Source: Candidatus Binatia bacterium (GTDB lineage: Bacteria > Desulfobacterota > Binatia > Bin18). Taken from it: DNA of 36,900 nucleotides. Both the position numbers and the translations under genes were made by a program. Position 1 is the stretch's first letter. Each line of letters begins with the position of its first letter. This document shows, piece after piece, positions 2,343-28,752 of the stretch. The notes below the pieces were generated by a model. That model ran no database searches. It was given only the letters and a program-made list of their open reading frames with translations, and had not been told where the DNA came from. The stretch is taken from NCBI GenBank assembly GCA_050185455.1, contig JBFWZL010000001.1, forward strand, positions 1 to 36,900. Reading direction: 5' to 3'.

Positions 2343-2377
2343 GGAGACCAGCTGTCCCCGGCGGTCTCCGTTTTTTG
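2343..2377 (+). terminator. intrinsic-terminator-like hairpin (copy B of the duplicated element)
   Basis: GGAGACC (2343-2349) pairs with GGTCTCC (2363-2369), followed by GTTTTTTG. Near-identical to 481-516. It lies only 17 nt upstream of the 2394 start codon, with GAGGAG (2382-2387) in between. Confidence 0.5.
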
Positions 2378-2393
2378 CTTTGAGGAGTCTGCT

Positions 2394-3713
2394 ATGGAAA
2401 CAATCCGAACCTGGGTCCGCGTCTTGTCGCTGAGCGTCTTCCTTGCCTCGCCTGGAATGTTAAGCGCCGAATCATGGAGCTGGAAATACCTTAGTGAACT
2501 CTCTGAGGCTGAGCGGAGCGCCATTGATTCACGGACCGACACGCCCCGTGACGCTACACTGCCCTACCTCCCTGCCGAGCCGTATCCTTTCACGCCGCCC
2601 TACACCGCCGAAGAAATGGGGCTGCGAGCCATGGAGTTTCCTCACATCGCGCGCTGGAACTTCGCCATGATCGAAGACTTTGGTTCGATCATGCCGACGG
2701 GGTATTTGTTTACCGGCAAAACTCTCGTGCTGTCCGTCTACCCCGAACCGGAAGGACTGGTCGGCTATCTCAACGCCAAACCCGGGGAGGTGTACGCCCG
2801 CTGGCTTTCGCAAGACACGTATCCACCGGAGAACCTGGGGAACCAATTTCTCATGATGCAGCACCGTACAGACCAGACCGCCACCACCAAGACCGATATG
2901 TTCGCCTATTCCCCCGTCTTGCGGCGTGTGCGTCGTTTTCCGCAGCCGCGTCGCCAGGACCGTTTCCCGGACCAGCCCATGACCTTTGACGATTTCCTCG
3001 GGCGCGACGCCTGGGAGTTCACCTGGCGTATTATCGGCTCTGATGTCCTCTCGGAGACGGTGCGGTTTCCCGCCACCCGAGACACCATCACGTTAGCCTT
3101 CGCGGACGGAGCGCTGAACGATGTCCCTGTCAACAGTCTCAAACTGATGGGGGATGAGTATCCGTATTATACGCCAGAAGGCGGTGTCCTCTGTTATGTA
3201 CTCGAAGCCAGGGCTAAGCCCGACTGGCTGCCCGATTATTATGCGCCGCGCATCCTCTATTGGGTGGATCAGCAGCACTTTTATCCACTGCGCACGGAAC
3301 AGTATGGACCGGACGGAGACCTGGTCGCCATGGAGGTGCGACTCGCGGCGTTGTTCAACCCTGACCTGAAAGAGCGCGGGTATCAGAACCTGATCACGGT
3401 GTGGTGGAATGCCCAGCTCGATTTTCTCGCCTATGGCATTCACGATGCGCATAAGCACTGGCAATGGACGGACAAAGATAAAGAGACGTACTTTAACCCT
3501 GACTTCATGCGCCGGGTGTGGTTCCCGATCCCGCTGAAGACGCAGGCCACCGTGCGTACGCCGGCGGAGATGTTTTTGCGGCCCCATCTGTATCGCGAGA
3601 AATTCCCTGACGAACGGCAGATTATCGTCTCTCCAGAGGTCGACGCTCGCATTCACGCCCAAGATGCTGCGGGACGGTTGGTGTTTAACCAGGCTGTAGC
3701 CGAAGCAGAGTAG
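2394..3713 (+). CDS. DUF1329 family periplasmic/outer-membrane-associated protein (LolA-like)
   Basis: 439 aa with an N-terminal signal peptide (METIRTWVRVLSLSVFLASPGMLSA). Size and layout fit DUF1329. It is directly followed by a DUF1302-like barrel, the known pairing. A clear paralog lies at 17183 (shared PY(L/I)PAE.YPF.PPYTAEEMG.RAMEF). Confidence 0.7.
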   Translation: METIRTWVRVLSLSVFLASPGMLSAESWSWKYLSELSEAERSAIDSRTDTPRDATLPYLPAEPYPFTPPYTAEEMGLRAMEFPHIARWNFAMIEDFGSIMPTGYLFTGKTLVLSVYPEPEGLVGYLNAKPGEVYARWLSQDTYPPENLGNQFLMMQHRTDQTATTKTDMFAYSPVLRRVRRFPQPRRQDRFPDQPMTFDDFLGRDAWEFTWRIIGSDVLSETVRFPATRDTITLAFADGALNDVPVNSLKLMGDEYPYYTPEGGVLCYVLEARAKPDWLPDYYAPRILYWVDQQHFYPLRTEQYGPDGDLVAMEVRLAALFNPDLKERGYQNLITVWWNAQLDFLAYGIHDAHKHWQWTDKDKETYFNPDFMRRVWFPIPLKTQATVRTPAEMFLRPHLYREKFPDERQIIVSPEVDARIHAQDAAGRLVFNQAVAEAE

Positions 3714-3734
3714 CACAGTGGTGAGGGAAGGGTG

Positions 3735-5408
3735 ATGGCGGAAAACACGAAGCAGCGGAACGGCGGCACGCGGACCCATCAAGGAGTAATCAACAATGCA
3801 ACACACGAGAGGCAAACGCGGGGGTGCGGAAGCGGTCCCAGACGTCTCTGCGTTGCGAGAGAGAGACAGACGGGCGCAGGTTTTATTTTTGCAGTGCTGC
3901 TCACCGTGAGCGTGTTGTCTCCAGCGCGATGCTTCGGAAACATACTGAGTAACGCCTGGGGCGAATTTGATCAGGCCTTGTCGATCTTTGATCCGGCGGG
4001 AGACTACATCAGCCAACCCATTGAGAAAGCCATCCCGGCGCTCACGTTCAAAGGGTTCTTTCGCCAATGGTCCGACCTCAATCTCCACCGCAATCAGAAA
4101 GTCGGCTTTCGTAACAAAGACTTCCGTTTTCTCCAATTGCAAAACCTGCTGGAAATCGAACTCCACTATCAGATCACCAATAATCTGGAACTGACCAGCG
4201 TGAATCACTTCCTCTACGATGGCGTCTATAACTGGCAGGACTCGGGCGGCCTCTTTGCGCCCCGTGTCAGCGAAACCGCACGATACTACCATAATTTTGA
4301 ACGCATCGTGCGCGAGTTGTACCTCAGTTATCGCACCCACAGTTTTGACATCGTCATCGGCAAGCAGCAAATCGCCTGGGGCAAGATGGATGGACGCTTC
4401 ATCGACATGATTAACCCCATGGACGTGCGCGAGTCGGTGCAACTGGAAGCGAGTGATTTTGAGTACCGTCGGCTGCCTACGTGGATGGCCAATGCGACTT
4501 ATTTTTTCGGCGGCAATTCTCTGCAACTCCTCTACATCCCGAACTTTGAGCAAGAGCGGCTGCCCACCGTGGGCTCGCCGTGGTTCCCTCCCTCCGTGCC
4601 GCCGCTGGACGCGATCGTTAAAAGGCGCAAACGGCCGAGCGCCGGCGATTTTGGTGACCATGAATACGGCACCCGGCTCGACATCTCGATGGATCCGCTG
4701 ACGTGGGGACTGATTTATTTCTATGCCTGGAACGACAATCCGAACTTCTTCCTCACCGGTGCGGATACGTCAGGCGAGACGGTCAAGCCGATTCTCACGC
4801 CCCGCCACACCCGGTTACATCATCTCGGAGTGACGGCCGATTATGCCACGACTCTCTCAGGAATGCCGGTGGTCGGAGATTTGCCGCTGGTCATACGTGT
4901 TGAGGGGCTGTACAGTTTCGGAGTCAAGTTTGCCGATGCCCAGCGACAACTCGCGGCATTCGCTGGCGGCGACGGTGGCGGGCATGTCAGTCGGGATACC
5001 CTGCGGGCGGCGATTGCGATCGAGTTCGCCTTGCCGGGGAACACGTCCTTCATCGTGCAGCCGTCGCTGTTTACAACGTTCGGGTGGCGCAAGAGTATTG
5101 TCGGCAGTGGATTTGGCGGAGCCACCGACAGCAACGAATGGAATCTGTTACCGGTCGTGTATGTCGAACATCCGTTCCGCTTCACCCGTGATCGGCTGCG
5201 GGCCAGCATTACCGTGTTTCCGTTTCTTGGCGCGCCGGGCCGCCATTATGAAGGGACAAAGAGCAAGCTGGTGGTGTCCTACAAGTTTTCCCGCTTCATT
5301 ACTGGGCGGTTGATCTACACGACCTATGACGGTGGCGGACGCGACAGCACCTTTGGCCAATACGACAAGTGGGACAATATCGGCTGGGAGATCAGTTATG
5401 AGTTTTGA
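3735..5408 (+). CDS. DUF1302 family outer-membrane beta-barrel protein
   Basis: Hydrophobic signal-like segment FIFAVLLTVSVLSPARCFG, a 'GKQQIAWGKMDG' motif, alternating beta-strand-like sequence, and C-terminal ...WEISYEF (terminal Phe, an OMP signature). The start is uncertain: GTG 3732 or ATG 3735 gives an unusually long N-region. A canonical AAGGAG-N9-ATG at 3796 is in another frame. Confidence 0.7.
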   Translation: MAENTKQRNGGTRTHQGVINNATHERQTRGCGSGPRRLCVARERQTGAGFIFAVLLTVSVLSPARCFGNILSNAWGEFDQALSIFDPAGDYISQPIEKAIPALTFKGFFRQWSDLNLHRNQKVGFRNKDFRFLQLQNLLEIELHYQITNNLELTSVNHFLYDGVYNWQDSGGLFAPRVSETARYYHNFERIVRELYLSYRTHSFDIVIGKQQIAWGKMDGRFIDMINPMDVRESVQLEASDFEYRRLPTWMANATYFFGGNSLQLLYIPNFEQERLPTVGSPWFPPSVPPLDAIVKRRKRPSAGDFGDHEYGTRLDISMDPLTWGLIYFYAWNDNPNFFLTGADTSGETVKPILTPRHTRLHHLGVTADYATTLSGMPVVGDLPLVIRVEGLYSFGVKFADAQRQLAAFAGGDGGGHVSRDTLRAAIAIEFALPGNTSFIVQPSLFTTFGWRKSIVGSGFGGATDSNEWNLLPVVYVEHPFRFTRDRLRASITVFPFLGAPGRHYEGTKSKLVVSYKFSRFITGRLIYTTYDGGGRDSTFGQYDKWDNIGWEISYEF

Positions 5409-5531: not shown

Positions 5532-6650
5532 ATGAAAATTATCGATGGTGACAGTCACTTCATGGAACCATTGGATCTGTTTGAGCGGTTCATCGATCCG
5601 CCGTATCGTGACCGAGCGATGCACGTCGCGAAAGATCCGACCAGCGGCGCCCCATGTATGGTCGTCGATGGGAAACCGATGCGGTTTCTCGATGTGGACG
5701 AGCTGCTCGGCGCAGTGGTGGCCTATGGCCAAAAAGAAGCCGATCATAACCTGACCGACTTCAATCGCCACCTGGTCTTTAACGCTCAGTGGCAGGACAT
5801 GGACAAGCGCGTGCAGTTTCTGGACGAGGAAGGGATCGACGCTTAAGTGCTCTTTCCTACCCTCGGCCTATTGTGGGAAGGGACCGTGACTGATCCCCAG
5901 CTCGCCGACGCCCATTGCCGCGCGTACAATACCTGGGCGTTTGAACTCTGTGCGGCCCACAAAGACCGGCTCTTCCCGGCGGCCCACATCTCGCTGCTCG
6001 ACCCGCGGTTGGCCGTGCGAGAGCTGGAGCGGGTGGCCAAGCTGGGGTGCCGGGCTATCATGTTAGGGTCTGCGCCGATTAAGGGGAGAAGCTTTGGTCA
6101 TCCGGACTTCGATCCAGTGTGGGCGACGGCGCAGGACTTGAACCTCAGTGTGGGCATCCATCCGGCTGGCAATCCAGACTACATCGGCAGTGCCTGGTAT
6201 CGGGACCGGGACCCCGGATTCATGTTCGTCACCATGAACGTCATCCAGGACCCGCGCATGGCGCTGACCACGATGGTCTATGACGGGGTGTTTGAGCGCT
6301 TTCCCAGGCTACGGGTGGCTACCGTTGAAGCGATGGTGGGGTGGGTCGGCGAGTGGCTCGAGCGGCTCAATTACCGCTACCAGTACATGAAACACACCTC
6401 GCAGATGAAGCGGCCAGCCACGGAATACTTTCAGCGTAACATCTGGATCAACGCGGACCCGGAGGAGAAGATGTTTCCACTGATCGTGCAGTTTGCCGGG
6501 GATGAGAAGTTCTTCATTGGGTCTGATTACCCCCATGCCGAGGGGTTCGTGCACCCAGTGCGGAAGGCACGAGAACTGCTCTCAGGCTTGCCTGCCGCGT
6601 CGGTGGACAAGATCCTGGGCGACAATGCCAGAGCGTTTTACGGCATCTGA
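5532..6650 (+). pseudogene. amidohydrolase-2 family gene interrupted by one in-frame TAA (5844-5846)
   Basis: ORFs 5532-5846 and 5847-6650 are in the same frame and are contiguous. The junction reads ...LDEEGIDA*VLFPTLG, inside the conserved 'GID..VL.P' segment. The N-terminal part carries 'IDGDSHFMEP' and the C-terminal part carries 'GSDYPHAEG'. Confidence 0.8.
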
Positions 6651-13430: not shown

Positions 13431-14321
13431 ATGGCCTTTTCCATCGAAGCGGCGTTGCCGCCACTGATCCGCCGTGACGTTGAGTACGCCGAACAGCACT
13501 ACCCGCCTATTCCTGAAACAATGCCCGCTGTTATCGCTGCCGACCCGGGCTGGAGTCGCCAGTGGACGAACATCAGAAACTCTATCGAGCAAGGCAAAAC
13601 CGCCCCTCGCAAGACGAAAGATCCCTCGCGGCGGCAGTTGGTCGCCAAGTATTTAGCGGGAATGGGCCACATGGAGTTACAGCTGATCGTCCAAGGCTGT
13701 ACCTACGCGGCGACGCAGTACGACATGCCCGCTGCCTGGCGCACGTGTATCATCAAACAAGCCTACGACGACATGCAGCACGCGGCGGGCTTCATCACGC
13801 GTGGGTCCCGTATGGCCAACGAAGACTACTGGCAGGGTACGGACGCACCGTATCTCTGGCCCGTGGACGCCTATCAGCCGATTTTACGACGCGATCTGGG
13901 CGGTTTCTTGGTGGCGATCGGGCTGCATACCGAGGCGTATCCGGCGTGGACCAATCTCAGCGGCGGCGGTCCGATCGCGGACATCTCCGTCGGCGCGTGG
14001 AGCTTACAAGAGATCGAAGATGAGGCATGGCACCTGACGTTTCTCCTGCCCGCGATCAAAGAGTATCTGCACACGGGCGCCCCGGAGGAACAAGACCGCC
14101 GTAAGCGGCAGATGGTGACGGATAACGAAATTCTTCTCGAAGCAGCGGTCCAGCCAGCCTACAAGAACGCGAAGGAATTCGTGGTGGGCCGTCTGGGGCA
14201 AGATCCGGCAATACTCTACGGCTATGAGCATCTCGATGAGCGCACGCGCCACATCTTCCGCTCCATTGGGATCGAAGAAAGCTACTGGCCCGCGTATCTT
14301 AAACAGGGTCTGGGAGTCTAG
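13431..14321 (+). CDS. uncharacterised protein with a ferritin-like diiron-carboxylate ligand pattern
   Basis: 296 aa with a GGAGGTG RBS. Candidate ligands are E82, D114-x-x-H117, E168 and E198-x-x-H201, with ~30-residue spacings, the pattern of four-helix-bundle diiron proteins. All are conserved in the paralog at 19985. No family name recognised. Confidence 0.6.
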   Translation: MAFSIEAALPPLIRRDVEYAEQHYPPIPETMPAVIAADPGWSRQWTNIRNSIEQGKTAPRKTKDPSRRQLVAKYLAGMGHMELQLIVQGCTYAATQYDMPAAWRTCIIKQAYDDMQHAAGFITRGSRMANEDYWQGTDAPYLWPVDAYQPILRRDLGGFLVAIGLHTEAYPAWTNLSGGGPIADISVGAWSLQEIEDEAWHLTFLLPAIKEYLHTGAPEEQDRRKRQMVTDNEILLEAAVQPAYKNAKEFVVGRLGQDPAILYGYEHLDERTRHIFRSIGIEESYWPAYLKQGLGV

Positions 14322-14393: not shown

Positions 14394-15845
14394 ATGGCAA
14401 CACAGCAACAGAGTAAATCACGGGCCGTACGAGCCAAACTCACACATCCGGTTATCGACTCCGATGGGCATACCGTCGAATTCGAACCTGCACTGTACGA
14501 TTACATCAAGCAAGTTGGCGGCGCGTCAGTCCTGGAGCGGTATCTGTCCCGACGTGGGTGGGGTGGCTGGTATCGCCGGTCTCCCGAAGAACGGCGTGAG
14601 CATCGCACCGTCCGTCCACCCTGGTGGGCGCTGCCGACCAAGAACACGCTCGATCGCGCCACCGCCACACTGCCAAAGCTGCTCGCCGAGCGGTTAGACG
14701 ACATCGGCCTCGACTTCACTGTTTTGTACCCGACCACGGGACTGTTCTTTCCTCACCTGGACGACGAAGAACTCCGGCGCGCCTGTTGCCGGGGGCTCAA
14801 CACCTTCCATGCCGAGATTTTTCGCGAACACGCCGATCGTATGACGCCGGCAGCGGCTATTCCCATGCACACGCCCCAAGAAGCGATTGAAGAACTGGAA
14901 TACGCAGTCAAGACGCTCGGTCTCAAGGCCATTGTCATGGCCGGCCATGTCCGTCGGCCTATTCCGGCGGCCGCGCGGATCGCGCCGGGCGCGGGGCGGA
15001 AAGCCTTGTGGCTCGATACGTTTTGTCTTGAGAGCGAATACGATTATGATCCGGTGTGGGCCAAGTGTGTCGAACTCGGCGTAGTTCCCACCTTTCACTC
15101 CGCTGGCATGGGCTGGGGCAGCCGTATGTCAACCTCTAACTACATGTATAACCACATCGGCCACTTCGCCTCGGCGGGCGAGGCTCTGTGTAAGGCCTTG
15201 TTCTTTGGCGGCGTGACGCGCCGCTTCCCGACGTTACGCTTCGGGTTCTTGGAGTGTGGGGTAAGCTGGGCGTGCAGCCTGTATGCTGACATGATCGGCC
15301 ATTGGGCGAAACGCAATGGCAAAGCCATGGAGAATTACAACCCGGCCAATCTGAACCCGGAAATGCTGCTTGATCTTTTTCAGCGCTATGGCGGCAAGAT
15401 GGTGGAAGGCAAACTGGAACAACTGCGGCAGGGCTCTGGCGGCAGCATGTTGGCGAGCACGACAGAAGACCCGGCGACGATTGATGACTGGTGGCGCTGT
15501 GGGATTGAGAAGCCCGAAGACATTAAAGCCCTGTTCGTACCCAATTTTTACTTTGGCTGTGAAGCGGATGATCCCATGAACGCCAGCGCGTTTAACACCA
15601 AAATCAACCCCTTCGGAGCCAAGCTCAAGGCCGTGTTCAGTTCCGATATTGGGCATTGGGATGTGCCGGACATGACGGAAGTGACCGAAGAGGCGTATGA
15701 GTTAGTGGAGGAGGGAAAGATGACGGAAGAAGACTTCCGCGAATTCGTCTTTGTGAATCCCACGAAGCTGTGGACGGATATGAACCCGCATTTCTTCAAG
15801 GGGACGCGGGTCGAAAAAGATGTTGAGAAACTGATAACACGGTGA
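14394..15845 (+). CDS. amidohydrolase-2 family protein (long form)
   Basis: 483 aa. 'VIDSDGHTVEFEP' at the N-terminus and 'FSSDIGHWD' near the C-terminus. An AAGGAGGA RBS precedes the start. Confidence 0.8.
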   Translation: MATQQQSKSRAVRAKLTHPVIDSDGHTVEFEPALYDYIKQVGGASVLERYLSRRGWGGWYRRSPEERREHRTVRPPWWALPTKNTLDRATATLPKLLAERLDDIGLDFTVLYPTTGLFFPHLDDEELRRACCRGLNTFHAEIFREHADRMTPAAAIPMHTPQEAIEELEYAVKTLGLKAIVMAGHVRRPIPAAARIAPGAGRKALWLDTFCLESEYDYDPVWAKCVELGVVPTFHSAGMGWGSRMSTSNYMYNHIGHFASAGEALCKALFFGGVTRRFPTLRFGFLECGVSWACSLYADMIGHWAKRNGKAMENYNPANLNPEMLLDLFQRYGGKMVEGKLEQLRQGSGGSMLASTTEDPATIDDWWRCGIEKPEDIKALFVPNFYFGCEADDPMNASAFNTKINPFGAKLKAVFSSDIGHWDVPDMTEVTEEAYELVEEGKMTEEDFREFVFVNPTKLWTDMNPHFFKGTRVEKDVEKLITR

Positions 15846-17038
15846 GTGAGGTAGATGTGAAACGTATTGCCCTTGCGGACAACACACTACGGCTTGGGCT
15901 GTTTTACCCAAACACCCCGTCGATTCACGTGACCTCGCGCGTGGTGGCGGATATGAATCCCGATTCGATGTCTCTGGCGACACACAGGCGCATTGCCGCG
16001 GTCAGCGAAGAGATTGGCCTTGATTATGTATTTATCGCCGACCGCTGGGCGCCGTACGGTCCCGAGTCCACCGCCGCGCATCATCAGGACCCGATGCTAG
16101 CGGCGTTCATCTTGGGCGCGACGCTGATTGGGATGACCGAGCGTATCGGCATTATCACCACGCTGCACACCACCTATTTCCATCCGGCTCATCTTGCCCG
16201 TATCGGCGCGAACCTGGACACGTTGTCCGGCGGTCGCTGGGGCTGGAACATCGTGACTGGCGTCACTACCGATGAGATGGAAATCTTCGGTTACAAGGGC
16301 GGCGTGGCCCATGACCTCCGCTACGATATGGCGCGTGAGATGCTCGCGTTGATCAAAAAGATCTGGGACGGCATGCGGCGGGAAAACGCGTATGTGGACT
16401 GGCAGGGCACGCATTACACCATGCGTGGCGCGGTGGTGGGACCGGGACCGCTGCAACAGCCGTATCCGCTGCTGGTCAATGCTGGCGCGTCGGACGCGGG
16501 CCGCCGCTTCGCCGCTGAGCACTGTGATTACATCTTCCTTACCGACAGTTCACAAGAAGGGGTTCTCCGGCGTATGCAAAGCGCGCGGGAGCAGGCCGTC
16601 GCCTTTGGCCGCCCGGCGGACGCCGTGCGGTTGATGATGGCGGCGCGGGTGATCGTGCGCGACACGCAGGAAGAAGCGGATCAAGCGCGGCACTGGATTG
16701 CGAATAATGTTGATCTCCCAGCGGCGCGCAACTTTGTCGCGGCCCTCATGGGCGGGATTGAAAGCATTCGCGAAGCGTTCGGCGACCGGGATGAGGCGGA
16801 ACTTTTGCGCGTGTGGGGAGGTGCGGTAGGCGAGCACGAAGCCTATTGCTGCGGGCCGCCGGAAAAGATCGCCCGCTCGATTATCGACCTGCACCGCGAG
16901 GTCGGCTGCCAGGGATTACTCCTGACGTTTCCCTTGTGGCATGAGGATGAGATTCGCCGTTTTGGCACACAGGTGATGCCGTTACTAGCGGAGGCAGGCG
17001 TGTGGACGCACCCGAGTCAGCGGGGGTGGAATTGGTAG
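15842..17038 (+). CDS. LLM-class flavin-dependent oxidoreductase
   Basis: 398 aa. 'FIADRWAP', 'IGANLDTLSGGRWGWNIVTG' and 'VNAGASDAGRRFAAEHCDYIF' are luciferase-like monooxygenase motifs. The GTG start overlaps the upstream stop (GTGA). Confidence 0.8.
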   Translation: MSEVDVKRIALADNTLRLGLFYPNTPSIHVTSRVVADMNPDSMSLATHRRIAAVSEEIGLDYVFIADRWAPYGPESTAAHHQDPMLAAFILGATLIGMTERIGIITTLHTTYFHPAHLARIGANLDTLSGGRWGWNIVTGVTTDEMEIFGYKGGVAHDLRYDMAREMLALIKKIWDGMRRENAYVDWQGTHYTMRGAVVGPGPLQQPYPLLVNAGASDAGRRFAAEHCDYIFLTDSSQEGVLRRMQSAREQAVAFGRPADAVRLMMAARVIVRDTQEEADQARHWIANNVDLPAARNFVAALMGGIESIREAFGDRDEAELLRVWGGAVGEHEAYCCGPPEKIARSIIDLHREVGCQGLLLTFPLWHEDEIRRFGTQVMPLLAEAGVWTHPSQRGWNW

Positions 17039-17182
17039 AGGGGGATTGCCGGGGAGTCTCACAGGGGAATGAAAACATACCACCTCAAGAAGGAAGGGAG
17101 CAACAATGAGCGTACGTGATCAGGCTGGCGCGGTTGTACGGGTGTGAACAAAGAACCAGCGAGAAAAGGTGAAGAGACTTTT

Positions 17183-18577
17183 ATGGGCAGGACATCGAGA
17201 ATATGCATTGGCAGCTGGGGCGTCAACCTTCTTGTGTTGATGGCCCTGCCCCTGGCCGCCTTCGCCGCGGACCCGGCTGCCAATCTCAAGACGACACCCA
17301 CCTGGCGCACCGTGGCCGAGTTGACCGTAGCGGAGCGGACGCTCGTCGATTGGCGGGCTGAAACGCCCCGCAACGCCACCTTCCCCTACATACCCGCGGA
17401 GCGCTACCCGTTTGAGCCCCCGTACACCGCCGAAGAGATGGGGTATCGGGCCATGGAATTTAGTCACTCGCCCCGCTGGTCCTGTAACCTCATCGATGTC
17501 ACCGGCACGCTCACCAGTGAGGGCTATCTGTTTACCTCTAAGCTCTACAGCCCGATTTTCTATGTCCCCAATGCCAAGGGGCTGACCGGCTTTGCCGGTG
17601 AACTCTATGGTACCAAGCCCGGCGAACCCACGCGCCAGGTTACCGGCCAGGATGTGTTTCCGCCGGAAAACTATGGCAATCAAATGGTGATGATCCAGTA
17701 TCGCACGGACCAGGAGCACTCAACCCGATGGAACCTCTTTTTCTACAGTGAGGGATTGCGTCGGGTGCGCCGCCAACCCTCACCCCGCCGTGGGGACAAA
17801 CTCGCGCAAGGCGCAGAAGGCTTGGATGACGTCTTCGGGCGCGACCCTTGGGAATTCAGGTGGGAGCTGCTGGGCACGGACGTGCTGTTTCAGACCGTAC
17901 GCTTTCCGGTGACCCGCCCCACGGTCACTCTGGCGCGGCCCGATGGCACGTTCTACCCCGTTGCCCCCAAAGATTTACGCCTCATGGGGGAGGAGTATCC
18001 CTTTTACACCCCTGAAAGAGGGGTCAAGTGTTGGGTGGTCAAAGCCCAGGTCAAAGAGGACTGGTTGCCCCACTACTATGCGTCCACGATCCTGTACTGG
18101 CTTGATCAGCACTATTTCTATCCGCTACGCATTGAACAGTACGACACAGCGGGGAATCTCATCTTTATCGAAACACGCCTGGCTAAACTGCTCAACCCGG
18201 CCATGGGCGACAAGGGGTATGGGATGCTCTTCAATCACTATTGGGACGTGACCCTCGACTACATGCGCTACAGCGTGCACGACGCCCATGAGGTGCGGGA
18301 GTGGTCCAAGCGCGACCAAGAAGTCTTTTTCAATCCGGCGGTCCTGCCGCGGAAGTGGTATTTTGCGCCGCTCAAGAGTCAGGCAGAGGTGACTGCTGCT
18401 GACCAGTATTTTCTCCGTCCGGCGCTTGATCGCGACAAGTTCCCTGGGCACCGAAAGATTGTGCTGCCGCCAGAACTCGCGGCCCGCATTCAGGCCCAAG
18501 AAGCCAAGGGGCATCTAGTCTTTGACGCACAAGAGCAGGCATTGACCTCTACCGTAAGGGGGAAAGAGGACAGATGA
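17183..18577 (+). CDS. DUF1329 family protein (second, orphan copy)
   Basis: Signal peptide MGRTSRICIGSWGVNLLVLMALPLAAFA|AD. Collinear similarity to the 2394 gene along the whole length. No DUF1302 partner follows. Confidence 0.7.
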   Translation: MGRTSRICIGSWGVNLLVLMALPLAAFAADPAANLKTTPTWRTVAELTVAERTLVDWRAETPRNATFPYIPAERYPFEPPYTAEEMGYRAMEFSHSPRWSCNLIDVTGTLTSEGYLFTSKLYSPIFYVPNAKGLTGFAGELYGTKPGEPTRQVTGQDVFPPENYGNQMVMIQYRTDQEHSTRWNLFFYSEGLRRVRRQPSPRRGDKLAQGAEGLDDVFGRDPWEFRWELLGTDVLFQTVRFPVTRPTVTLARPDGTFYPVAPKDLRLMGEEYPFYTPERGVKCWVVKAQVKEDWLPHYYASTILYWLDQHYFYPLRIEQYDTAGNLIFIETRLAKLLNPAMGDKGYGMLFNHYWDVTLDYMRYSVHDAHEVREWSKRDQEVFFNPAVLPRKWYFAPLKSQAEVTAADQYFLRPALDRDKFPGHRKIVLPPELAARIQAQEAKGHLVFDAQEQALTSTVRGKEDR

Positions 18578-18606: not shown

Positions 18607-18754
18607 ATGAGCGAACATGAGTGTGAGGACATTCGTGCGCGCTTCCACCTAATCGCCAAGGAAAAAATTGCCGCGCCGGACTGTTAGGAAGCTGACGATT
18701 CCCAAAGAGTTCGGCGACCTCGGCGGCGGCACTGTAGACAACATTTTGAGATGA
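18607..18754 (+). pseudogene. decayed acyl-CoA dehydrogenase N-terminal relic
   Basis: MSEHECEDIRARFHLIAKEKIAAPDC* (18607-18687) resembles the ACAD '..EEHE.IRD.VR.FA.EKIAP' start. In a shifted frame, KLTIPKEFGDLGGGTVDNILR* (18689-18754) resembles the ACAD 'GLTIPEEYGGLG' segment. The intervening ~30 residues are missing. Confidence 0.4.
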
Positions 18755-18775
18755 ACCGAAAAGGAGGAGACTCGC

Positions 18776-19960
18776 ATGGCGCAGCAGAAGCAAGTAGAGA
18801 CCGAACTGGTGATGGGCTGGGAGAGCCGCAAACGGCTACAAGCAAAAGGCTTCACCAACAAAGAAGGCCAGATCTTCCGGGCCATGGCCCCGGTGCTGGA
18901 GCAGGAAGGGCTGATTACGCCGACGCCGGCATCCTATGTGGTCCAACATTTTGACGTACCCGCCGTGATGCGTCCGGAAGACTGGAAGGTGACCATTGGC
19001 GGTCACGTCAAACAGCCAGTGACGCTGACCTATAATGACCTGCGCGAGCTGCCGGGCCGCACGGTGCGCATGGTCATGGAATGCTCGGGTAACGACGCGC
19101 AATTCTTCGATGCGCAGTACGCCGAGCGCTTTATCGGCCTCATGCGCTATCTCGATCCCGATTATCAGGGGAAGCGCTGGCAGGGAGGACTCATCTCGGC
19201 GGGAGAGTTTACTGGCGTGCCGTTAGCCAGTGTGCTGGAGAGAGCCGGACTCAAACCTAATGCCGTCAATGTGCGTGTGGAGGGGACGGATCGCGGCGCG
19301 CCCGACCTGGTTATGCATGGTCTGCCGCCATCAGACACCCCGGTGCCGCCGTTTAACTATGACAAAGGTCTGCCCATGGAGAAGGCGTTGCATCCGGATA
19401 CTATTCTGGCCTGGGCGCAAAACGGCGAAGCCCTGGACCACGTTCATGGCGCGCCGGTGCGGTTGGTCGTGCCCGGCTGGCCAGGGAACTGGTCGGTGAA
19501 GTGGGTGCAACGCATCGAGGTGCTCGATCGTCCGGCGACCTGCTGGTACCAGACCGAGTACTATTACTATAGTCAGTCGCCAGACGATCCCCAGCGCGAG
19601 ATCATTACGACCCTGCCCGTCAAATCGATGGTGACCTACCCCAAAGACGACAATCCGACGCTGTCACGCGGTCGCCATGTCCTGCGAGGGTTTGCGTGGA
19701 GTGGCGCGGGGGCGATTACGCGTGTGGAAGTCAGCCTGGATGACGGTAAGACCTGGCAGGCGGCGCATCTGGAAGAGCCGCGAGAGAAATGGTTGTGGAC
19801 GCGTTGGTCGCTACCGTGGGATTTTCAAGCACCAGGGCAATACGCGATTCTGTGTCGCGCCACGGATGAAGCCGGACGGGTACAGAGCCGCGAGGCGCGG
19901 TGGAACCAGTTGCGCAAGAACTTCGATGGCATCGTGCCGGTGCAGGTGACGATCGCATAG
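18776..19960 (+). CDS. sulfite-oxidase-fold molybdopterin oxidoreductase (SUOX family), no signal peptide
   Basis: 'ITPTPASYVVQHFDVP', 'WKVTIGGHVKQPVTLTYNDLRELP', the Mo-ligand cysteine context 'VMECSGN', and a dimerisation-domain motif 'RGFAWSGAGAITRVEVSLDDGKTWQAAHL'. The N-terminus is hydrophilic, with no Sec or Tat signal, and there is no heme domain. Confidence 0.85.
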   Translation: MAQQKQVETELVMGWESRKRLQAKGFTNKEGQIFRAMAPVLEQEGLITPTPASYVVQHFDVPAVMRPEDWKVTIGGHVKQPVTLTYNDLRELPGRTVRMVMECSGNDAQFFDAQYAERFIGLMRYLDPDYQGKRWQGGLISAGEFTGVPLASVLERAGLKPNAVNVRVEGTDRGAPDLVMHGLPPSDTPVPPFNYDKGLPMEKALHPDTILAWAQNGEALDHVHGAPVRLVVPGWPGNWSVKWVQRIEVLDRPATCWYQTEYYYYSQSPDDPQREIITTLPVKSMVTYPKDDNPTLSRGRHVLRGFAWSGAGAITRVEVSLDDGKTWQAAHLEEPREKWLWTRWSLPWDFQAPGQYAILCRATDEAGRVQSREARWNQLRKNFDGIVPVQVTIA

Positions 19961-19984
19961 TACGATTAAGAATAAGGAGCGTGT

Positions 19985-20863
19985 ATGTTCGATCTCAATA
20001 CCCTTCCGCAACTGATTCGCCGCGACATTGAGCACGGTGAAAGCAATTTCCCTACTATTCCCGATGACGTACCTGCCGTGGTGGAAATCGACCCAAGCTG
20101 GAAGCGGCAGTGGCTAGCCGCGCGGGCTCGGGTGCGGCAGGAGGGGCCGACCTATGAGGGCTTGGACGCCAAACGTCAACGGTACTTCGCCCGCTACCTG
20201 GCCGTGGTCGGTTTAGCCGAGCTGGAAATGATCGTCCTGGGCTGCACCTACGCCGCCACGCACTACGAAATGCCGGCGGCCTGGCGCACCTGCCTGATCA
20301 AACAGGCGTATGAGGACATGCAACACGCGGCCAGCTACATCACCCGCGGCTGCAAACTGAGCGGGGAGAACTATTGGAACGGCATCGCGGACGTGCCCTA
20401 TCGTGAGAATATCGCTAAGACATACCATCCCATCTTGCGGCGCGACCTCGGCGGGTTTTTCGCCGCGATTGGTCTGCATACCGAAGCCTATCCGGCGGAG
20501 ACCAACATCTTAGAGCCCTTTGCGTTGGACCCGGTGTTGGTGCGCTGGATGCCCAATGAGATTCAAGAGGAAGCTGGGCATCTGACGTTTCTCTATCCGG
20601 CGATGCGCGAGTATGTACACAGCGGCACGCCAGAGGAACAGGACCGGCGCAATCGACAAATGGTGGCGGACAATGAAACGCTGCTGGAAACGGCGATGGA
20701 GGCCAACCGCCGCAATGCTGAGACCTTTGTGGTGGGCAAGCTGGGCATGGACCCGGCAGTGATGGAAGCGTTCGCGCATATTCCTGAGCGTACGCGTTAT
20801 ATCTTCCAGACTATCGGTATCGAAGAGAGTTACTGGCCGCGGTATCTGAAAAAGAGCGATTAG
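19985..20863 (+). CDS. uncharacterised ferritin-like diiron-pattern protein (paralog of 13431)
   Basis: 292 aa, roughly half the residues identical to 13431-14321 by eye. Shared blocks include GCTYAAT.Y.MPAAWRTC.IKQAY.DMQHA, ILRRDLGGF..AIGLHTEAYPA, EI..EA.HLTFL, PEEQDRR.RQMV.DNE and IGIEESYWP.YLK. It starts 24 nt after the SUOX-like gene. Confidence 0.6.
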   Translation: MFDLNTLPQLIRRDIEHGESNFPTIPDDVPAVVEIDPSWKRQWLAARARVRQEGPTYEGLDAKRQRYFARYLAVVGLAELEMIVLGCTYAATHYEMPAAWRTCLIKQAYEDMQHAASYITRGCKLSGENYWNGIADVPYRENIAKTYHPILRRDLGGFFAAIGLHTEAYPAETNILEPFALDPVLVRWMPNEIQEEAGHLTFLYPAMREYVHSGTPEEQDRRNRQMVADNETLLETAMEANRRNAETFVVGKLGMDPAVMEAFAHIPERTRYIFQTIGIEESYWPRYLKKSD

Positions 20864-24277: not shown

Positions 24278-25816
24278 ATGATTGAACCAATGACGAAGGA
24301 AACGCTCCCAGCCACCTGGGCGAAAGTCATCGACCACACCAAGTGTATCGGCTGTCACGCCTGTAGCACCGCATGTAAATCGGAAAATCAGGTGCCGCTG
24401 TCAGTCAACCGCACCTACGTCAAATATGTTGATGTGGGCGTGTTCCCACACGTGCGGCGGGCGTTTCAGGTCACCCGCTGTAATCAATGCGCGGATCCAC
24501 CGTGCGTCTCCGCCTGCCCGACGGCGGCGATGTACGCCCGGCCTGACGGCATTGTCGATTTCGATAAATCCGTGTGCATCGGTTGTAAAGCCTGCATCGC
24601 GGCTTGTCCCTATGACGCGATCTTTATCAATCCGGAAGACCATGCAGCCGAGAAGTGCAACTTTTGCGCTCACCGTATCGACATCGGGCTCGAACCGGCA
24701 TGTGTGATTGTCTGTCCCACCGAGGCGATTCTCATCGGTGACCTCAACGATGCCTCCTCGAAAGTAGCGCAAGTGGTTGGCCGCACCCCGGTCACCGTGC
24801 GCCGTCCGGAAAAAGAAACGCGCCCAAAGCTGTTTTACAAAGGCGCGCACCAGGCCACGCTTGATCCGCTGGCGGCGGAACGCCCCGGAGGCGGACTGTT
24901 TCTGTGGAGCGAGCAAGGAAAGGTGTCTCACCAGGTGACCTCTGGGCATCCTGGACACCAGAATTCCTCGGCCGCGGCCATGCTCTCGTATGACGTGCCG
25001 CATCGCGCGCCGTGGGACTGGCGGCTGAGCCTGTATACGTGGACGAAAGGCATGGCTTCAGGCGCTTACCTCATCCCTGCACTGCTCGTGCTGTTTGGCC
25101 TCTTACCGACGGAGAGCCCGCTGTGGCAATGGGTCACGCCACTCGTCGCCGGGCTCTTTCTCGCGCTCACCGGCCTGATCCTCATTGCCGACCTCGATCA
25201 TCCCGAACGGTTCTATCTCATCTTCACCCGTCGGCAGTGGAAAAGTTGGTTGGTGCGTGGTGCGTTTATCATCACTGGCTACGCGCTCGTCTTGGGCCTG
25301 CACTTCCTGGCCAGCTTTTGGCACGAAGCCGGTCAACCTCTTCAGACGGCCCTGACAGCGCTGGGGCTCCCTTTAAGTGTGATGACCGCTGTCTACACGG
25401 CCTATCTCTTTGCCCAGGCGGCGGCGCGTGACCTGTGGCAGAATCCCCTCCTGCCGTTCCACTTTTTCGTGCAAGCGCTACTGGCGGGCTCGGCGGTGTT
25501 GCTGCCGTGCGCGGCGATGTTTGCGCCAGAAGCGGCGCCGCCGCTGGCGTGGCTCCTCAGCGGGATCTGCCTGTTGCATCTTCTACTGGTGTTAAGCGAA
25601 GTCACGCTGGCGCACCCAACGGCGCATGCCCGGTTGGCTGCTGAAGAAATGACGGTGGGAGCTTTCCGTCAGTACTTCCGGGCTGGAGTCGCACTGGTAG
25701 TTGTGGGCATCGCTGCCCCGTGGATCGGCATTCCGGCGGTCCTACCAGCCCTTGCCGGACTGCTCGCCCATGAACATGCCTATGTGCAGGCCGGACAGGC
25801 TGTGCCCCTCGCATAA
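24278..25816 (+). CDS. fusion of a four-cluster [4Fe-4S] ferredoxin subunit (PsrB/DmsB/SoeB-like) to an NrfD/PsrC-type membrane anchor
   Basis: The N-terminal ~190 aa carry four Cys groups: CIGCHACSTAC, CNQCADPPCVSACP, CIGCKACIAACP and CNFCAHR...ACVIVCP. The C-terminal ~290 aa hold about eight hydrophobic helices and the NrfD-type 'ADLDHPERFY' motif. No signal peptide. Confidence 0.8.
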   Translation: MIEPMTKETLPATWAKVIDHTKCIGCHACSTACKSENQVPLSVNRTYVKYVDVGVFPHVRRAFQVTRCNQCADPPCVSACPTAAMYARPDGIVDFDKSVCIGCKACIAACPYDAIFINPEDHAAEKCNFCAHRIDIGLEPACVIVCPTEAILIGDLNDASSKVAQVVGRTPVTVRRPEKETRPKLFYKGAHQATLDPLAAERPGGGLFLWSEQGKVSHQVTSGHPGHQNSSAAAMLSYDVPHRAPWDWRLSLYTWTKGMASGAYLIPALLVLFGLLPTESPLWQWVTPLVAGLFLALTGLILIADLDHPERFYLIFTRRQWKSWLVRGAFIITGYALVLGLHFLASFWHEAGQPLQTALTALGLPLSVMTAVYTAYLFAQAAARDLWQNPLLPFHFFVQALLAGSAVLLPCAAMFAPEAAPPLAWLLSGICLLHLLLVLSEVTLAHPTAHARLAAEEMTVGAFRQYFRAGVALVVVGIAAPWIGIPAVLPALAGLLAHEHAYVQAGQAVPLA

Positions 25817-25836
25817 TGATGAGAAGGAGGAAGAGC

Positions 25837-28752
25837 ATGAGTGTGACAAAGCGTGATGAGCAGGTGGGGGTGACACAGCAGGAAACTGAAGCGCGCAAGG
25901 AAACCTTCTATCAAGGGCCGAGCCATATTCATCTGGCGGCGTTTCCCCCTAAAGAGCGGTGGGATGACTGGGCGGAACTGGACTCACGGGCGTGGCCGCA
26001 ACGGGTCGAGCACCATTATATGTTGACGCCGACGACGTGCTTCAACTGTGAGTCCGCGTGTGGGCTGCTCGCCTACGTGGAGAGAGAGACGCTTGCCATT
26101 AGAAAATTTGAGGGCAATCCTGAACATCCGGGATCACGCGGTCGTAATTGCGCCAAGGGACCGGCTACGCTGAATCAAGTGACCGATCCGGATCGGATTC
26201 TGTACCCGCTCAAACGCGCCGGCAAACGTGGGGAAGGCAAGTGGCAGCGCGTCTCCTGGGATGAGGCGCTTGATGACATCGCTGGACGGGTCCGCCGAGC
26301 CCTTCAGGAGCGTCGGCACAACGAGATTATGTATCACGTCGGACGGCCAGGCGAGGATGGGTACACCGAGCGCGTACTGGCCGCCTGGGGAATTGATGGT
26401 CACAACTCGCATACCAACATCTGTTCGTCGAGCGGTCGCGCGGGGTATCAGTATTGGATGGGGCTTGACCGGCCCAGTCCCGACCATGCGAATGCGGAAG
26501 TGATCCTGCTCATCAGCGCTCACCTGGAATCGGGTCATTATTTCAACCCCCATGCGCAACGCATCATGGAGGGCAAAGGGCAGGGTGCGAAGCTGATCGT
26601 GTTCGATGTCCGCCTCTCCAACAGCGCCACCCACGCCGATTACTGGGTAGCGCCGTACCCAGGGACGGAAGCCGCGATCCTCTTGGCCATCGCGAACTAT
26701 GTGATTCAGCACGACCTCTATAACCGCGACTTCATCCGCCGCTGGTGGAACTGGCAGGAATACCTGCGCGTCGAGTATCCCGACCTTGCCCCGACGTTCG
26801 AGGGCTTCGAGGGCATCCTCAAACAGTTATACACGGATTACACCTTTGACTTCGCCGCGCGGGAGGCTGGGATCGAAGTGAAGACGCTTGAGGAGATCGC
26901 CCGCCTGGTGGCGACCGCGGGGACACGGCTCTCGACCCACACCTGGCGGAGCGCCACTGCCGGGAATCTCGGCGGCTGGCAGATTTCACGCTCGCTCTTT
27001 CTGCTCAACACGCTGCTTGGCGCCGTCGCCACCGAAGGCGGCGTGTATCCCAACGCCTGGAACAAATTCGTCCCGCGGCCAATCTATACTCCTCCACATC
27101 CACACGTGTGGAACGCGCTCACGTGGCCCACTGAGTACCCGCTGGCCATGAATGAACTCTCGTTCCTCTTGCCGCACTTCTTGAAGGAAGGCCGCGGCAA
27201 ACTCAATGTGTACTTCACTCGTGTGTATAACCCGGTGTGGACGAATCCCGACGGCTTTACCTGGATCGACGTGCTGAGCGACGAAGCGCTCGTCGGCCTG
27301 CACGTCGCGCTCACGCCCACCTGGAGTGAGACGGCCTATTTCGCGGATTACATTCTTCCCATGGGTCTGGGCAACGAACGGCATGACATCCATTCCTATG
27401 AAACCCATGACGCGCAGTGGCTCGGCTTCCGCCAACCCGTACTACGCGCCGCCCGTGAACGTCTGGGGGAGACGATCACTGATACCCGTCAAGTCAATCC
27501 TGGTGAAGTGTGGGAAGAGAACGAATTCTGGATCGAGCTGTCCTGGCGCATTGATCCAGATGGCGCGCTCGGCATCCGCAAGTTCTTCGAGTCGCAGCAG
27601 CGGCCCGGCGAGAAACTCACCGTCGATGAGTATTACGGTCATATTTTTGCCAACTCAGTCCCGGGTCTGCCGGAACGCGCGGCGGCCGAGGGCCTCTCTC
27701 CGCTGGCCTACATGCGTCGCTACGGCGCCTTCGAGGTCCAGAAGAACATCGGTCCCCTGCACGAACAGGAAGTTCCTGGAGAGGAATTAGTAGACTGCCG
27801 GACCGACGAGATTGGACGCATGTTCACGCGCGCTCCCAAACCCGCAAGTCCCAATATCGTTCCCCTCCCGACTCCGGACGGGGACGCCGAGGGGCGGCGG
27901 TTAGTGGGGGTGGAAGTAGACGGCAAGATTCTGCGCGGGTTTCCCACGCCGAGTGGGCGGCTCGAATTCTACTCTCAGACCTTGAAAGATTGGGGGTGGC
28001 CGGACTACATAGTGCCCACCTACATCCAAAGCCATATCCATCCAGAACGACTGGACAAAGACCAGATGGTGTTGATTCCCACGTTCCGCTTGCCCGTGCA
28101 GATTCACACGCGCAGCGCCAACGCCAAATGGCTGGACGAGATTGCCCACACCAATCCGTTGTGGATCAACACCAAGGATGCGGCGCGCATCGGCGTGCGC
28201 ACTGGCGATTTGACGCGAGTGGAAACCGAGATCGGGTATTTCGTTGTGAAGGCGTGGGTGACCGAAGGCATCCGGCCCGGCGTGGTTGGATGCAGCCATC
28301 ATATGGGCCGCTGGAAACTCTCCAATGACGGACAACGGCAAATGATGGCGACGGTTGGACTTGATCGTCAGGGCAGTCACTGGACACTGAGCCGTAAGAA
28401 AGGAGTCGAAGCTTTTGCGAGCGCCGATGCCGACAGCCAACGTATTTGGTGGACCGACGCGGGCGTGCACCAAAACCTGACGTTCCCCGTACATCCCGAT
28501 CCCATTTCCGGCATGCACTGCTGGCATCAGGCCGTGCGCGTTACCCGGGCGCGGGTGGACGATCGCTACGGGGACATTCACGTGGATACCGAGAAGTCGC
28601 ATGCCGCCTACAAACACTGGCTAGAGCGCACGCGCCCGGCCGAACAGTTCTCTCCCGATGGGACGCGCCGCCCTTACTGGCTGCTCCGCCCGCTAAAACC
28701 GGCCCGCGCCGTCTATCGGCTGCCACAAGCAGAAGACGGAAAAGGGGAATAA
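25837..28752 (+). CDS. molybdopterin (bis-MGD, DMSO-reductase superfamily) oxidoreductase catalytic subunit, Tat-less
   Basis: ~971 aa. The N-terminal FS0 motif 'CFNCESACGLL...NCAKG' is C-x2-C-x3-C-xn-C. Length and layout are typical of Psr/Phs/Ttr/Soe-type A subunits. ATG 25837 follows AAGGAGG. There is no twin-arginine signal with a hydrophobic core. Confidence 0.85.
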   Translation: MSVTKRDEQVGVTQQETEARKETFYQGPSHIHLAAFPPKERWDDWAELDSRAWPQRVEHHYMLTPTTCFNCESACGLLAYVERETLAIRKFEGNPEHPGSRGRNCAKGPATLNQVTDPDRILYPLKRAGKRGEGKWQRVSWDEALDDIAGRVRRALQERRHNEIMYHVGRPGEDGYTERVLAAWGIDGHNSHTNICSSSGRAGYQYWMGLDRPSPDHANAEVILLISAHLESGHYFNPHAQRIMEGKGQGAKLIVFDVRLSNSATHADYWVAPYPGTEAAILLAIANYVIQHDLYNRDFIRRWWNWQEYLRVEYPDLAPTFEGFEGILKQLYTDYTFDFAAREAGIEVKTLEEIARLVATAGTRLSTHTWRSATAGNLGGWQISRSLFLLNTLLGAVATEGGVYPNAWNKFVPRPIYTPPHPHVWNALTWPTEYPLAMNELSFLLPHFLKEGRGKLNVYFTRVYNPVWTNPDGFTWIDVLSDEALVGLHVALTPTWSETAYFADYILPMGLGNERHDIHSYETHDAQWLGFRQPVLRAARERLGETITDTRQVNPGEVWEENEFWIELSWRIDPDGALGIRKFFESQQRPGEKLTVDEYYGHIFANSVPGLPERAAAEGLSPLAYMRRYGAFEVQKNIGPLHEQEVPGEELVDCRTDEIGRMFTRAPKPASPNIVPLPTPDGDAEGRRLVGVEVDGKILRGFPTPSGRLEFYSQTLKDWGWPDYIVPTYIQSHIHPERLDKDQMVLIPTFRLPVQIHTRSANAKWLDEIAHTNPLWINTKDAARIGVRTGDLTRVETEIGYFVVKAWVTEGIRPGVVGCSHHMGRWKLSNDGQRQMMATVGLDRQGSHWTLSRKKGVEAFASADADSQRIWWTDAGVHQNLTFPVHPDPISGMHCWHQAVRVTRARVDDRYGDIHVDTEKSHAAYKHWLERTRPAEQFSPDGTRRPYWLLRPLKPARAVYRLPQAEDGKGE

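Follow-up and report, generated by a model that had tools for sequence, protein, structure and literature searches.

A SUOX-fold gene next to a diiron-type gene

The subject of this work is a pair of adjacent genes in a 36,900-nucleotide (nt) stretch of DNA from a Candidatus Binatia bacterium (contig JBFWZL010000001.1, positions 1 to 36,900 of the forward strand), the whole of which is referred to below as the window. The first gene encodes a molybdoenzyme of the SUOX fold and the second a 292-amino-acid (aa) protein with a diiron-type pattern of metal ligands. The two open reading frames (ORFs) and the short spacer between them were found as delimited in an initial annotation of the window (Table 1), which had read the pair as a two-gene unit of a cytoplasmic molybdenum (Mo) enzyme and a diiron protein that replaces the usual cytochrome partner. 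Judged from its sequence, the SUOX protein appears to belong to a cytoplasmic branch of the SUOX family that is known but uncharacterized, and its substrate pocket is altered; its adjacency to the diiron gene is a recent, lineage-specific gene order.

A Pfam search of the SUOX protein recovered the Mo-binding domain PF00174 (Oxidored_molyb; 162 bits, E 1e-47, cut-off 24) and the dimerization domain PF03404 (Mo-co_dimer; 76 bits, E 4e-21, cut-off 22.7) only, and no heme or cytochrome domain. The N terminus was hydrophilic, with a best 12-residue Kyte-Doolittle mean of 0.95, and contained neither an RRxFL-type twin-arginine motif nor a hydrophobic stretch. The Tat-bearing SorA from locus L040 served as a control; it carried the twin-arginine motif and reached 1.89 by the same measure. 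Between the upstream stop codon and position 18776 there is no other start, so no longer ORF could hide a signal peptide. The protein had been described in the initial annotation as SUOX-fold, hydrophilic at its N terminus, and devoid of a heme domain and of a signal, and all of this was borne out, with neither a Tat nor a Sec signal present. So was the statement that no cytochrome gene lies next to it: neither a gene for a c-type cytochrome partner nor a YedZ-like gene was found beside the SUOX gene, whose neighbors are the DUF1329 and diiron-type genes. These data support the prediction of a cytoplasmic enzyme with the Mo center as its only recognizable cofactor site.

The scores against the NCBIfam models of characterized relatives all fell short of the equivalog cut-offs (SoxC, 242 against 420; SorA, 181 against 600; SorT, 168 against 570; MsrP, 64 against 207). 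Among sequences in the PDB, the best match was SoxC (2xts, 148 bits), and SorA (2blf, 123 bits), SorT (5k3x), chicken sulfite oxidase, and plant sulfite oxidase (1ogp, 92 bits) were matched as well. The Mo ligand, C103, aligns with C104 of SorA and was invariant in 35 aligned members of the clade. The active-site tyrosine, Y262, is retained, and so is a C-terminal WN-x-LR motif, which we take to resemble that around R450 of chicken sulfite oxidase. Two arginines of the pocket are replaced. Val56 occupies the position of the central arginine (R55 in SorA, R138 in the chicken enzyme) and Ala108 that of the arginine in the "CSGNSRG" loop (R109 in SorA), as mapped in three independent alignments, two made with HMMER to SoxC and to SorA and one made with BLASTP to the SorA of L040. 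At the R55 position, 33 clade members out of the 35 aligned have a hydrophobic residue (V, I, L, or W) and the other two a lysine, and the motif around it read Y-V-V-Q-H-F or a variant thereof.

The same alignment revealed a conserved N-terminal "GW" segment standing in place of a signal peptide, this extension being specific to the clade, together with an insertion behind the Cys loop. Proteins of the clade are about 397 aa long and have a dimerization domain. A cluster search matched 6,559 clusters of the SUOX family; the 120 that ranked highest were all 51 to 91% identical to the window protein and mostly 380 to 420 aa long. The homologues in this clade are annotated merely as "molybdopterin-dependent oxidoreductase" (Dehalococcoidia) or "YedYZ catalytic subunit." The arginine-less clade comprises the window gene, a paralogue of it linked to genes for an electron transfer flavoprotein (ETF), and numerous homologues from metagenomes, some of which carry the name Dehalococcoidia.

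An orphan family with a ferritin-like model

The 292-aa protein had no match in Pfam or NCBIfam and no PDB profile match at E values up to 10, and none of the named diiron families looked for (RNR R2, AurF/CmlI, ADO, PaaA, MiaE, and others) gave a sequence-profile match. In an alignment of 37 sequences, homologues at 50 to 92% identity, E79, D111, H114, H165, E167, E192, E196, and H199 were invariant, as were two cysteines, C87 and C103. The order of the ligands is carboxylate, (D/E)xxH, carboxylate, ExxH, at spacings of about 30 residues, so that the diiron pattern recognized earlier (E79, D111xxH114, E167, and E196xxH199) withstood the comparison. Four residues behind H114, a tyrosine is found in the window's clade and a phenylalanine in most other aligned members; a conserved radical tyrosine was absent from the alignment.

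The AF2 model of the protein is all-helical (mean pLDDT, 94.8; pTM, 0.91). All 50 listed Foldseek matches in the PDB were ferritin-like, and nearly all of them were known diiron or Mn/Fe enzymes, including RNR R2, R2lox, CmlI, aldehyde-deformylating oxygenase (ADO), acyl-ACP desaturase, and toluene monooxygenase; the probabilities were mostly 0.8 to 1.0, the E values only 0.03 to 0.17, and the TM scores 0.35 to 0.67. By this model, the protein is a member of an orphan ferritin-like family and most likely binds a dinuclear metal site.

The family is small. It comprised 75 clusters among 5.8 billion proteins, and when 1.84 billion representative proteins were searched exhaustively with a profile, 34 matches, mostly fragments, were obtained. 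Three distant full-length members from the latter search had no Pfam match and hence gave no link to any named family. A set of 185,579 species genomes yielded 14 loci. The genome from which the window derives (G000) holds four copies, on the window contig and on contigs C195 and C276, and each of the three copies other than the one beside the SUOX gene (that at 13431-14321 of the window and those on C195 and C276) adjoins a luciferase-like monooxygenase (LLM) gene.

Conservation of the gene pair

Loci of the diiron family were gathered from assemblies, species genomes, and metagenomes, the neighbors were labeled using the window proteins, and the surroundings of about 49 distinct diiron-family genes were analyzed. 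Directly 5' of the diiron gene, a SUOX gene was found at three loci: the window, L058 (SUOX 91% and the diiron gene, present in part, 83% identical to those of the window), and L059 (93 and 90%, respectively). These loci all belong to a single shallow clade, with at least 83% identity to the window pair, and they alone share a conserved spacer sequence of 24 to 25 nt. In five equally close relatives (87 to 92% identity), the upstream genes differed right up to the ribosome-binding site. The gene 5' of the diiron gene was a 483-aa Amidohydro_2 gene in L006 and L019 and a Rieske beta-subunit-like gene in L018 and L032. At L031 (6109-6625), the gene for the 483-aa amidohydrolase breaks off after its first 38 codons and continues as a diiron gene (91% identical) from codon 154 onward, apparently through an internal deletion within an amidohydrolase-diiron pair. 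Maximum-likelihood analysis of the window-type diiron clade gave a tree without resolved branching, from which neither a grouping of the SUOX-adjacent members nor an order of the rearrangements was derived.

We also surveyed the metagenome-assembled genomes that carry the diiron family for a window-type SUOX gene, defined by at least 53% identity. Nine of the 10 other genomes were without one, and in the tenth a 53%-identical gene lay 7.6 kb from the diiron gene. A relative at 39% identity was present in one further genome, and the remaining eight had relatives at 32 to 37% identity or none at E values up to 1e-20. Conversely, no diiron neighbor was present at four close homologues of the SUOX gene (63 to 87% identity). 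A 289-aa gene 3' of the 73%-identical SUOX homologue in L012 was considered as a second case of the pair and turned out to be unrelated to the diiron family. The SUOX clade has a much wider distribution than the diiron family (at least 120 listed clusters at 51 to 91% identity versus 75 clusters in all), and in the window's own genome one of three SUOX-family genes adjoins one of the four diiron-family copies. The phylum of the window gave no information on co-occurrence: no member of either family turned up in 300 other genomes, nor did the SUOX clade in 200 genomes searched in the order of G310. The lack of matches in the phylum points to a horizontally transferred island or to mis-binning of the contig.

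The proposal of a diiron partner in place of a cytochrome, such as that of SorAB or SorT/SorU, can be put as an obligate two-component cytoplasmic enzyme in which the diiron protein would reoxidize the Mo center, for example by reducing O2. We consider such an enzyme highly improbable. In its favor, O2 reduction is a known ability of diiron proteins, the genes next to that for the SUOX protein encode no cytochrome, heme domain, or other evident acceptor, and L058 and L059 have kept the close spacing together with the ribosome-binding site in it. The adjacency is nonetheless confined to three of about 49 loci, all from one shallow clade, and is replaced by other gene orders in relatives just as close. 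The co-occurrence of the two families across genomes, proposed as a check in the initial annotation, was not found in 9 of 10 genomes, and the wide spread of the SUOX clade and the four homologues without a diiron neighbor point the same way. Two arrangements described below add to this: elsewhere the diiron gene follows genes for a periplasmic SorAB with its own cytochrome, which a cytoplasmic protein would be unable to touch, and a paralogue of the SUOX gene is followed by ETF genes. A lack of conservation of the adjacency elsewhere had been named in the initial annotation as a finding that would refute the pairing, and this was the outcome. The claim of a Mo-diiron two-component enzyme fails the comparative test and is not worth pursuing in its stated form. 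What stands of the two-gene unit is probable cotranscription and the spacer kept in L058 and L059; a role of the diiron protein as the partner of the SUOX enzyme was unsupported.

Neighbors of the diiron family

An LLM gene adjoined the diiron gene in 17 of the approximately 49 loci and lay within 1 kb of it in about 27. In 16 loci, an unnamed gene of 184 to 200 aa was found directly 3' of the diiron gene (e.g., L001:8904-9506 and L040:6926-7480), always behind diiron members of 52 to 67% identity. Its product has an HxH...H pattern and gave weak matches to CDO_I (E 0.004) and Cupin (E of about 0.2); identification as a cysteine-dioxygenase-like cupin was set aside, the CDO_I match being weak. 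This gene may be the true conserved partner of the diiron family. In the clade at 52 to 55% identity, a DsbA-like gene lies 5' of the diiron gene, and in the window-type loci the most constant neighbor is a four-rhodanese gene, 3' of the diiron gene in six of eight. The wider surroundings include genes for TauD, persulfide-dioxygenase-rhodanese fusions, YeeE-like sulfur transporters, ACAD-fold (acyl-CoA-dehydrogenase-fold) proteins, and coenzyme A (CoA) transferases.

Recurrent proximity to the flavin monooxygenases bears on another explanation, that the diiron protein is a rubrerythrin-like scavenger of peroxide or O2 beside a SUOX enzyme and flavin monooxygenases that leak H2O2. Flavin-dependent monooxygenases release H2O2 when uncoupled, the Mo-only sulfite oxidase of plants uses O2 directly and generates H2O2, and the diiron family is nearly always next to genes of the former kind. 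The best fold matches, however, are to proteins of about 290 aa of the R2, R2lox, CmlI, ADO, and desaturase type and not to rubrerythrin or ferritin, and Pfam detected no rubredoxin domain in the 292-aa protein, both of which argue against a scavenger of this kind. The family is also very rare, whereas LLM monooxygenases are ubiquitous. We regard this explanation as very unlikely, even more so than that of an obligate two-component enzyme.

Genes for sulfite oxidation recur near the diiron family in other forms. Directly 5' of the diiron gene, L040, L047, and L048 encode a SorA with a Tat signal (566 bits against the NCBIfam SorA model) and a SorB-like cytochrome c (SorA at L040:4232-5482; SorA and SorB-like, the latter with a CxxCH motif, at L048:4291-5562 and 5572-5961). 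The diiron gene in these loci encodes a 53%-identical member of the family and is followed by the cupin-like gene and then an LLM monooxygenase gene. In L039, a 79%-identical window-type SUOX gene lies 1.7 kb 5' of the diiron gene, in a unit of its own behind an ABATE/CGNR regulator gene encoded on the other strand, and in L037 and L030 a SUOX gene lies 3 to 8 kb away. The SUOX homologue in L037 (4268-5486, minus strand) matched in two overlapping pieces, residues 1 to 232 and 238 to 393, and may be frameshifted or a pseudogene. In all, a SUOX-family gene occurs within 8 kb of a diiron member in at least four arrangements, which exceeds chance. Since the periplasmic SorAB has its own cytochrome and is out of reach of a cytoplasmic protein, this recurrence argues for a link at the level of the pathway. 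The sulfite-oxidizing genes near the diiron family would thus signal a connection through sulfite or a related S(IV) compound rather than a complex, a reading supported by the gene neighborhoods.

Neighbors and a paralogue of the SUOX gene

Close homologues of the SUOX gene adjoin genes for LLM, ACAD-fold, or HpaB flavin monooxygenases, TauD, and the four-rhodanese protein. In L010 and L037, an orthologue of the window's LLM gene (LLM_b) lies directly 5' of the SUOX orthologue; in L011 and L012, ACAD-fold genes flank the SUOX homologue, and in L013 HpaB does so. The neighboring monooxygenases are SfnG-, DszA-, and DszC-like. Two-component monooxygenases of the LLM and ACAD folds cleave C-S bonds and yield sulfinates and sulfite; SfnG produces methanesulfinate, MsuC methanesulfonate, and MsuD sulfite (PMC11588060). 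A sulfite oxidase beside such monooxygenases in SAR202 has been read as serving the use or detoxification of sulfite (PMC5395668).

The genome of the window encodes a second signal-less SUOX protein of 413 aa, 49 to 59% identical, on contig C370 (L061). An Amidohydro_2 gene 87% identical to the 483-aa one of the window lies 5' of it, and ETF beta and alpha genes begin 70 nt 3' of it. With these genes next to the paralogue, ETF is, by analogy, a candidate electron acceptor for the SUOX clade.

The initial annotation had allowed for a substrate other than sulfite, which fits the replacement of both active-site arginines by V56 and A108. In the absence of the two dianion-binding arginines from the clade, a less charged S-oxyanion, such as a monoanionic alkanesulfinate, is a live alternative to sulfite. 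One explanation goes further and holds that the enzyme is not a sulfite oxidizer at all; it would oxidize alkane- or arylsulfinates to sulfonates or reduce S- or N-oxides in the manner of MsrP, and the diiron protein would be unrelated to it. The hydrophobic residues at the R55 position in 33 of 35 members and the scores far below the cut-offs of all sulfite-dehydrogenase equivalog models are in keeping with this, although the Mo-ligand Cys, Tyr262, and the C-terminal WN-x-LR motif (with R450 presumably its counterpart in the chicken enzyme) are retained and SoxC, which is also without the second arginine, oxidizes sulfur. A candidate for sulfite oxidation of the SoeABC type is already present in the island (see below). 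The products of SfnG-, DszA-, and DszC-like neighbors include sulfinates, but in the known pathway sulfinate oxidation is carried out by MsuC, an ACAD-fold enzyme (PMC11588060), and ACAD-fold genes are present in the window. On balance, we hold this explanation to be unlikely, but clearly less so than the preceding two.

Organization of the locus

The coordinates of the genes and of the other features are given in Table 1. A Shine-Dalgarno sequence lies 5' of the ATG codon of each of the two genes. Scans for sigma-70 promoters and for terminators and a search for the sigma-54 consensus around the pair gave nothing beyond the expectation from shuffled sequences. The SUOX, diiron, and rhodanese genes are probably cotranscribed in the window.

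The DUF1329 gene separates LLM_b from the SUOX gene in the window only and is absent between them where relatives have the two adjacent. Its LolA-like product may be secreted, as judged from our own inspection of the sequence. The gap between the DUF1329 and SUOX genes contains two short frames ("...IRARFHLIAKEKIAAPD" and "LTIPKEFGDLGGG") that resemble the N terminus of an acyl-CoA dehydrogenase; the match to the window's own ACAD was weak (tblastn E 0.028 across 30 aa). If real, this relic would mark a rearrangement scar immediately 5' of the SUOX gene.

Further downstream, at 24278-28752, the window encodes a fused four-cluster ferredoxin/NrfD protein, then a 978-aa bis-PGD molybdoenzyme, and then a SulP permease, which together make a SoeABC-like candidate sulfite dehydrogenase within the same island. 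The island also holds genes for an FMN reductase, several luciferase-like and ACAD-fold flavin monooxygenases, amidohydrolases, and sigma-54 activators. The nearest relatives are labeled Binatia, Deltaproteobacteria, or Methylomirabilota; the G000 assembly has 5.8% contamination and 650 contigs.

Table 1. Features of the SUOX-diiron locus and of the locus of the SUOX paralogue (positions refer to the window unless a contig is named)
Feature	Position	Strand	Basis or remark
Paralogue of the diiron-type protein, 296 aa, 57% identical	13431..14321	+	Between LLM monooxygenase and Amidohydro_2 genes
LLM_b, luciferase-like (SfnG/DmoA-like) FMNH2 monooxygenase	15842..17038	+	Pfam, NCBIfam, neighborhoods
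DUF1329/LolA-like protein	17144..18577	+	Between LLM_b and the SUOX gene
Candidate relic of an acyl-CoA-dehydrogenase N terminus	18607..18754	+	tblastn E 0.028 over 30 aa
Shine-Dalgarno of the SUOX gene, AAAGGAGG / AAAGGAGGA	18760-18767 / 18760..18768	+	Ends 7 nt 5' of the SUOX ATG
SUOX-fold molybdoenzyme, 394 aa, signal-less	18776..19960	+	PF00174 and PF03404 domains
Val56 codon of the SUOX gene, SorA-type arginine replaced	18941-18943	+	Alignment mapping
Mo-ligand Cys103 codon of the SUOX gene	19082-19084	+	Residue mapping by alignment
Ala108 codon of the SUOX gene, SorA-type arginine replaced	19097-19099	+	Alignment mapping
Intergenic spacer between the SUOX and diiron genes, 24 nt	19961..19984	+	Contains AAGGAG Shine-Dalgarno at 19974-19979
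Orphan ferritin-like diiron-type protein ("fam292"), 292 aa	19985..20863	+	Alignment, AF2, Foldseek
Putative ligands of the 292-aa protein	E79, 20219-20221; D111/H114, 20315-20326; E167, 20483-20485; E196/H199, 20570-20581		
Four-rhodanese-domain protein, 565 aa	20989..22686	+	Pfam and neighborhoods
SUOX paralogue and ETF beta/alpha genes (L061)	1042-2283, 2353-3168, 3172-3777		Contig C370

Interpretation of the gene pair

We favor, with a probability of about 0.65, the explanation that the SUOX and diiron genes encode two independent soluble enzymes of the cytoplasm that belong to one large organosulfur-catabolism island and are linked at the level of the pathway through sulfite or organosulfur compounds. 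The island would be frequently rearranged, and the 24-nt adjacency a recent gene order that reflects a shared pathway rather than a Mo-diiron complex. Its flavin monooxygenases would cleave C-S bonds and yield S(IV) products, on one of which the SUOX protein would carry out a two-electron oxo transfer, sulfite being the default candidate. The electrons could pass to O2, as in plant sulfite oxidase, or to ETF. The 292-aa protein would activate O2 at its dinuclear metal site and catalyze an oxidation of its own, acting on an organosulfur compound. The folds, ligand motifs, absence of a signal, neighborhood statistics, and co-occurrence across genomes are results of the analysis; the substrates, metal content, electron acceptor, and cotranscription are inferred.

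Several points weigh against this explanation. The short spacer is kept in three relatives, which could possibly reflect a lineage-specific functional coupling, and the occurrence of a SUOX-family gene within 8 kb in at least four arrangements could hide a tie closer than a shared pathway. The missing arginines weaken the default assignment of sulfite as the substrate, and with a SoeABC-like candidate already encoded in the island, the SUOX enzyme as a second sulfite oxidizer would perhaps be redundant. The absences in the genome survey are soft, because most relatives are metagenome-assembled genomes or short contigs.

A more far-reaching version, which we consider improbable, is that the clade is one of cytoplasmic molybdoenzymes for a nonsulfite substrate (for example, alkane- or arylsulfinates or S-oxides), acting after two-component flavin monooxygenases and with ETF or O2 as the acceptor, and that in the lineage of the window the gene was recruited into an operon with an O2-activating diiron enzyme of organosulfur breakdown. 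If true, the arginine-less clade and the diiron operon would supply two uncharacterized catalysts for one pathway.

The SUOX gene is a well-contextualized representative of the uncharacterized cytoplasmic SUOX enzymes, and its pocket, neighbors, and ETF-linked paralogue give testable ideas on substrate and electron acceptor. The orphan diiron family is firmly associated with organosulfur and sulfite genes, which restricts the range in which its reaction has to be sought. The SUOX and diiron genes both bear on the mineralization of organic sulfur by uncultured bacteria of soil and sediment.

Comparison with known systems

The 292-aa protein is like the R2-type diiron and Mn-Fe proteins in being a helical bundle of about 290 aa, as modeled, with a carboxylate/(D/E)xxH pattern of ligands. 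Unlike them, its family has no detectable sequence homology to these proteins and no conserved radical tyrosine, and it has two invariant cysteines.

The SUOX protein shares with SorA, SorT, and SoxC the two-domain fold, the Mo-ligand Cys, and the active-site Tyr. It differs from them in that it has no Tat signal and no gene for a cytochrome c partner, in that Val and Ala stand in place of the arginines, and in its N-terminal "GW" extension and the insertion after the Cys loop. From MsrP/YedY, it is set apart by a score of 64 bits against a cut-off of 207, by the lack of a signal, and by the lack of an adjacent YedZ-like gene. The plant sulfite oxidase of Arabidopsis (1ogp), matched at 92 bits, resembles it in being a Mo-only protein (393 aa) with a dimerization domain and no heme. 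The plant enzyme retains the arginine pocket that is missing in the window protein. Single-subunit cytoplasmic enzymes of the SUOX family are a described but uncharacterized category (Kappler 2008 and Workun et al. 2008, as cited in PMC7759655). As far as this description goes, the signal-less, single-subunit, Mo-only protein of the window fits this category best.

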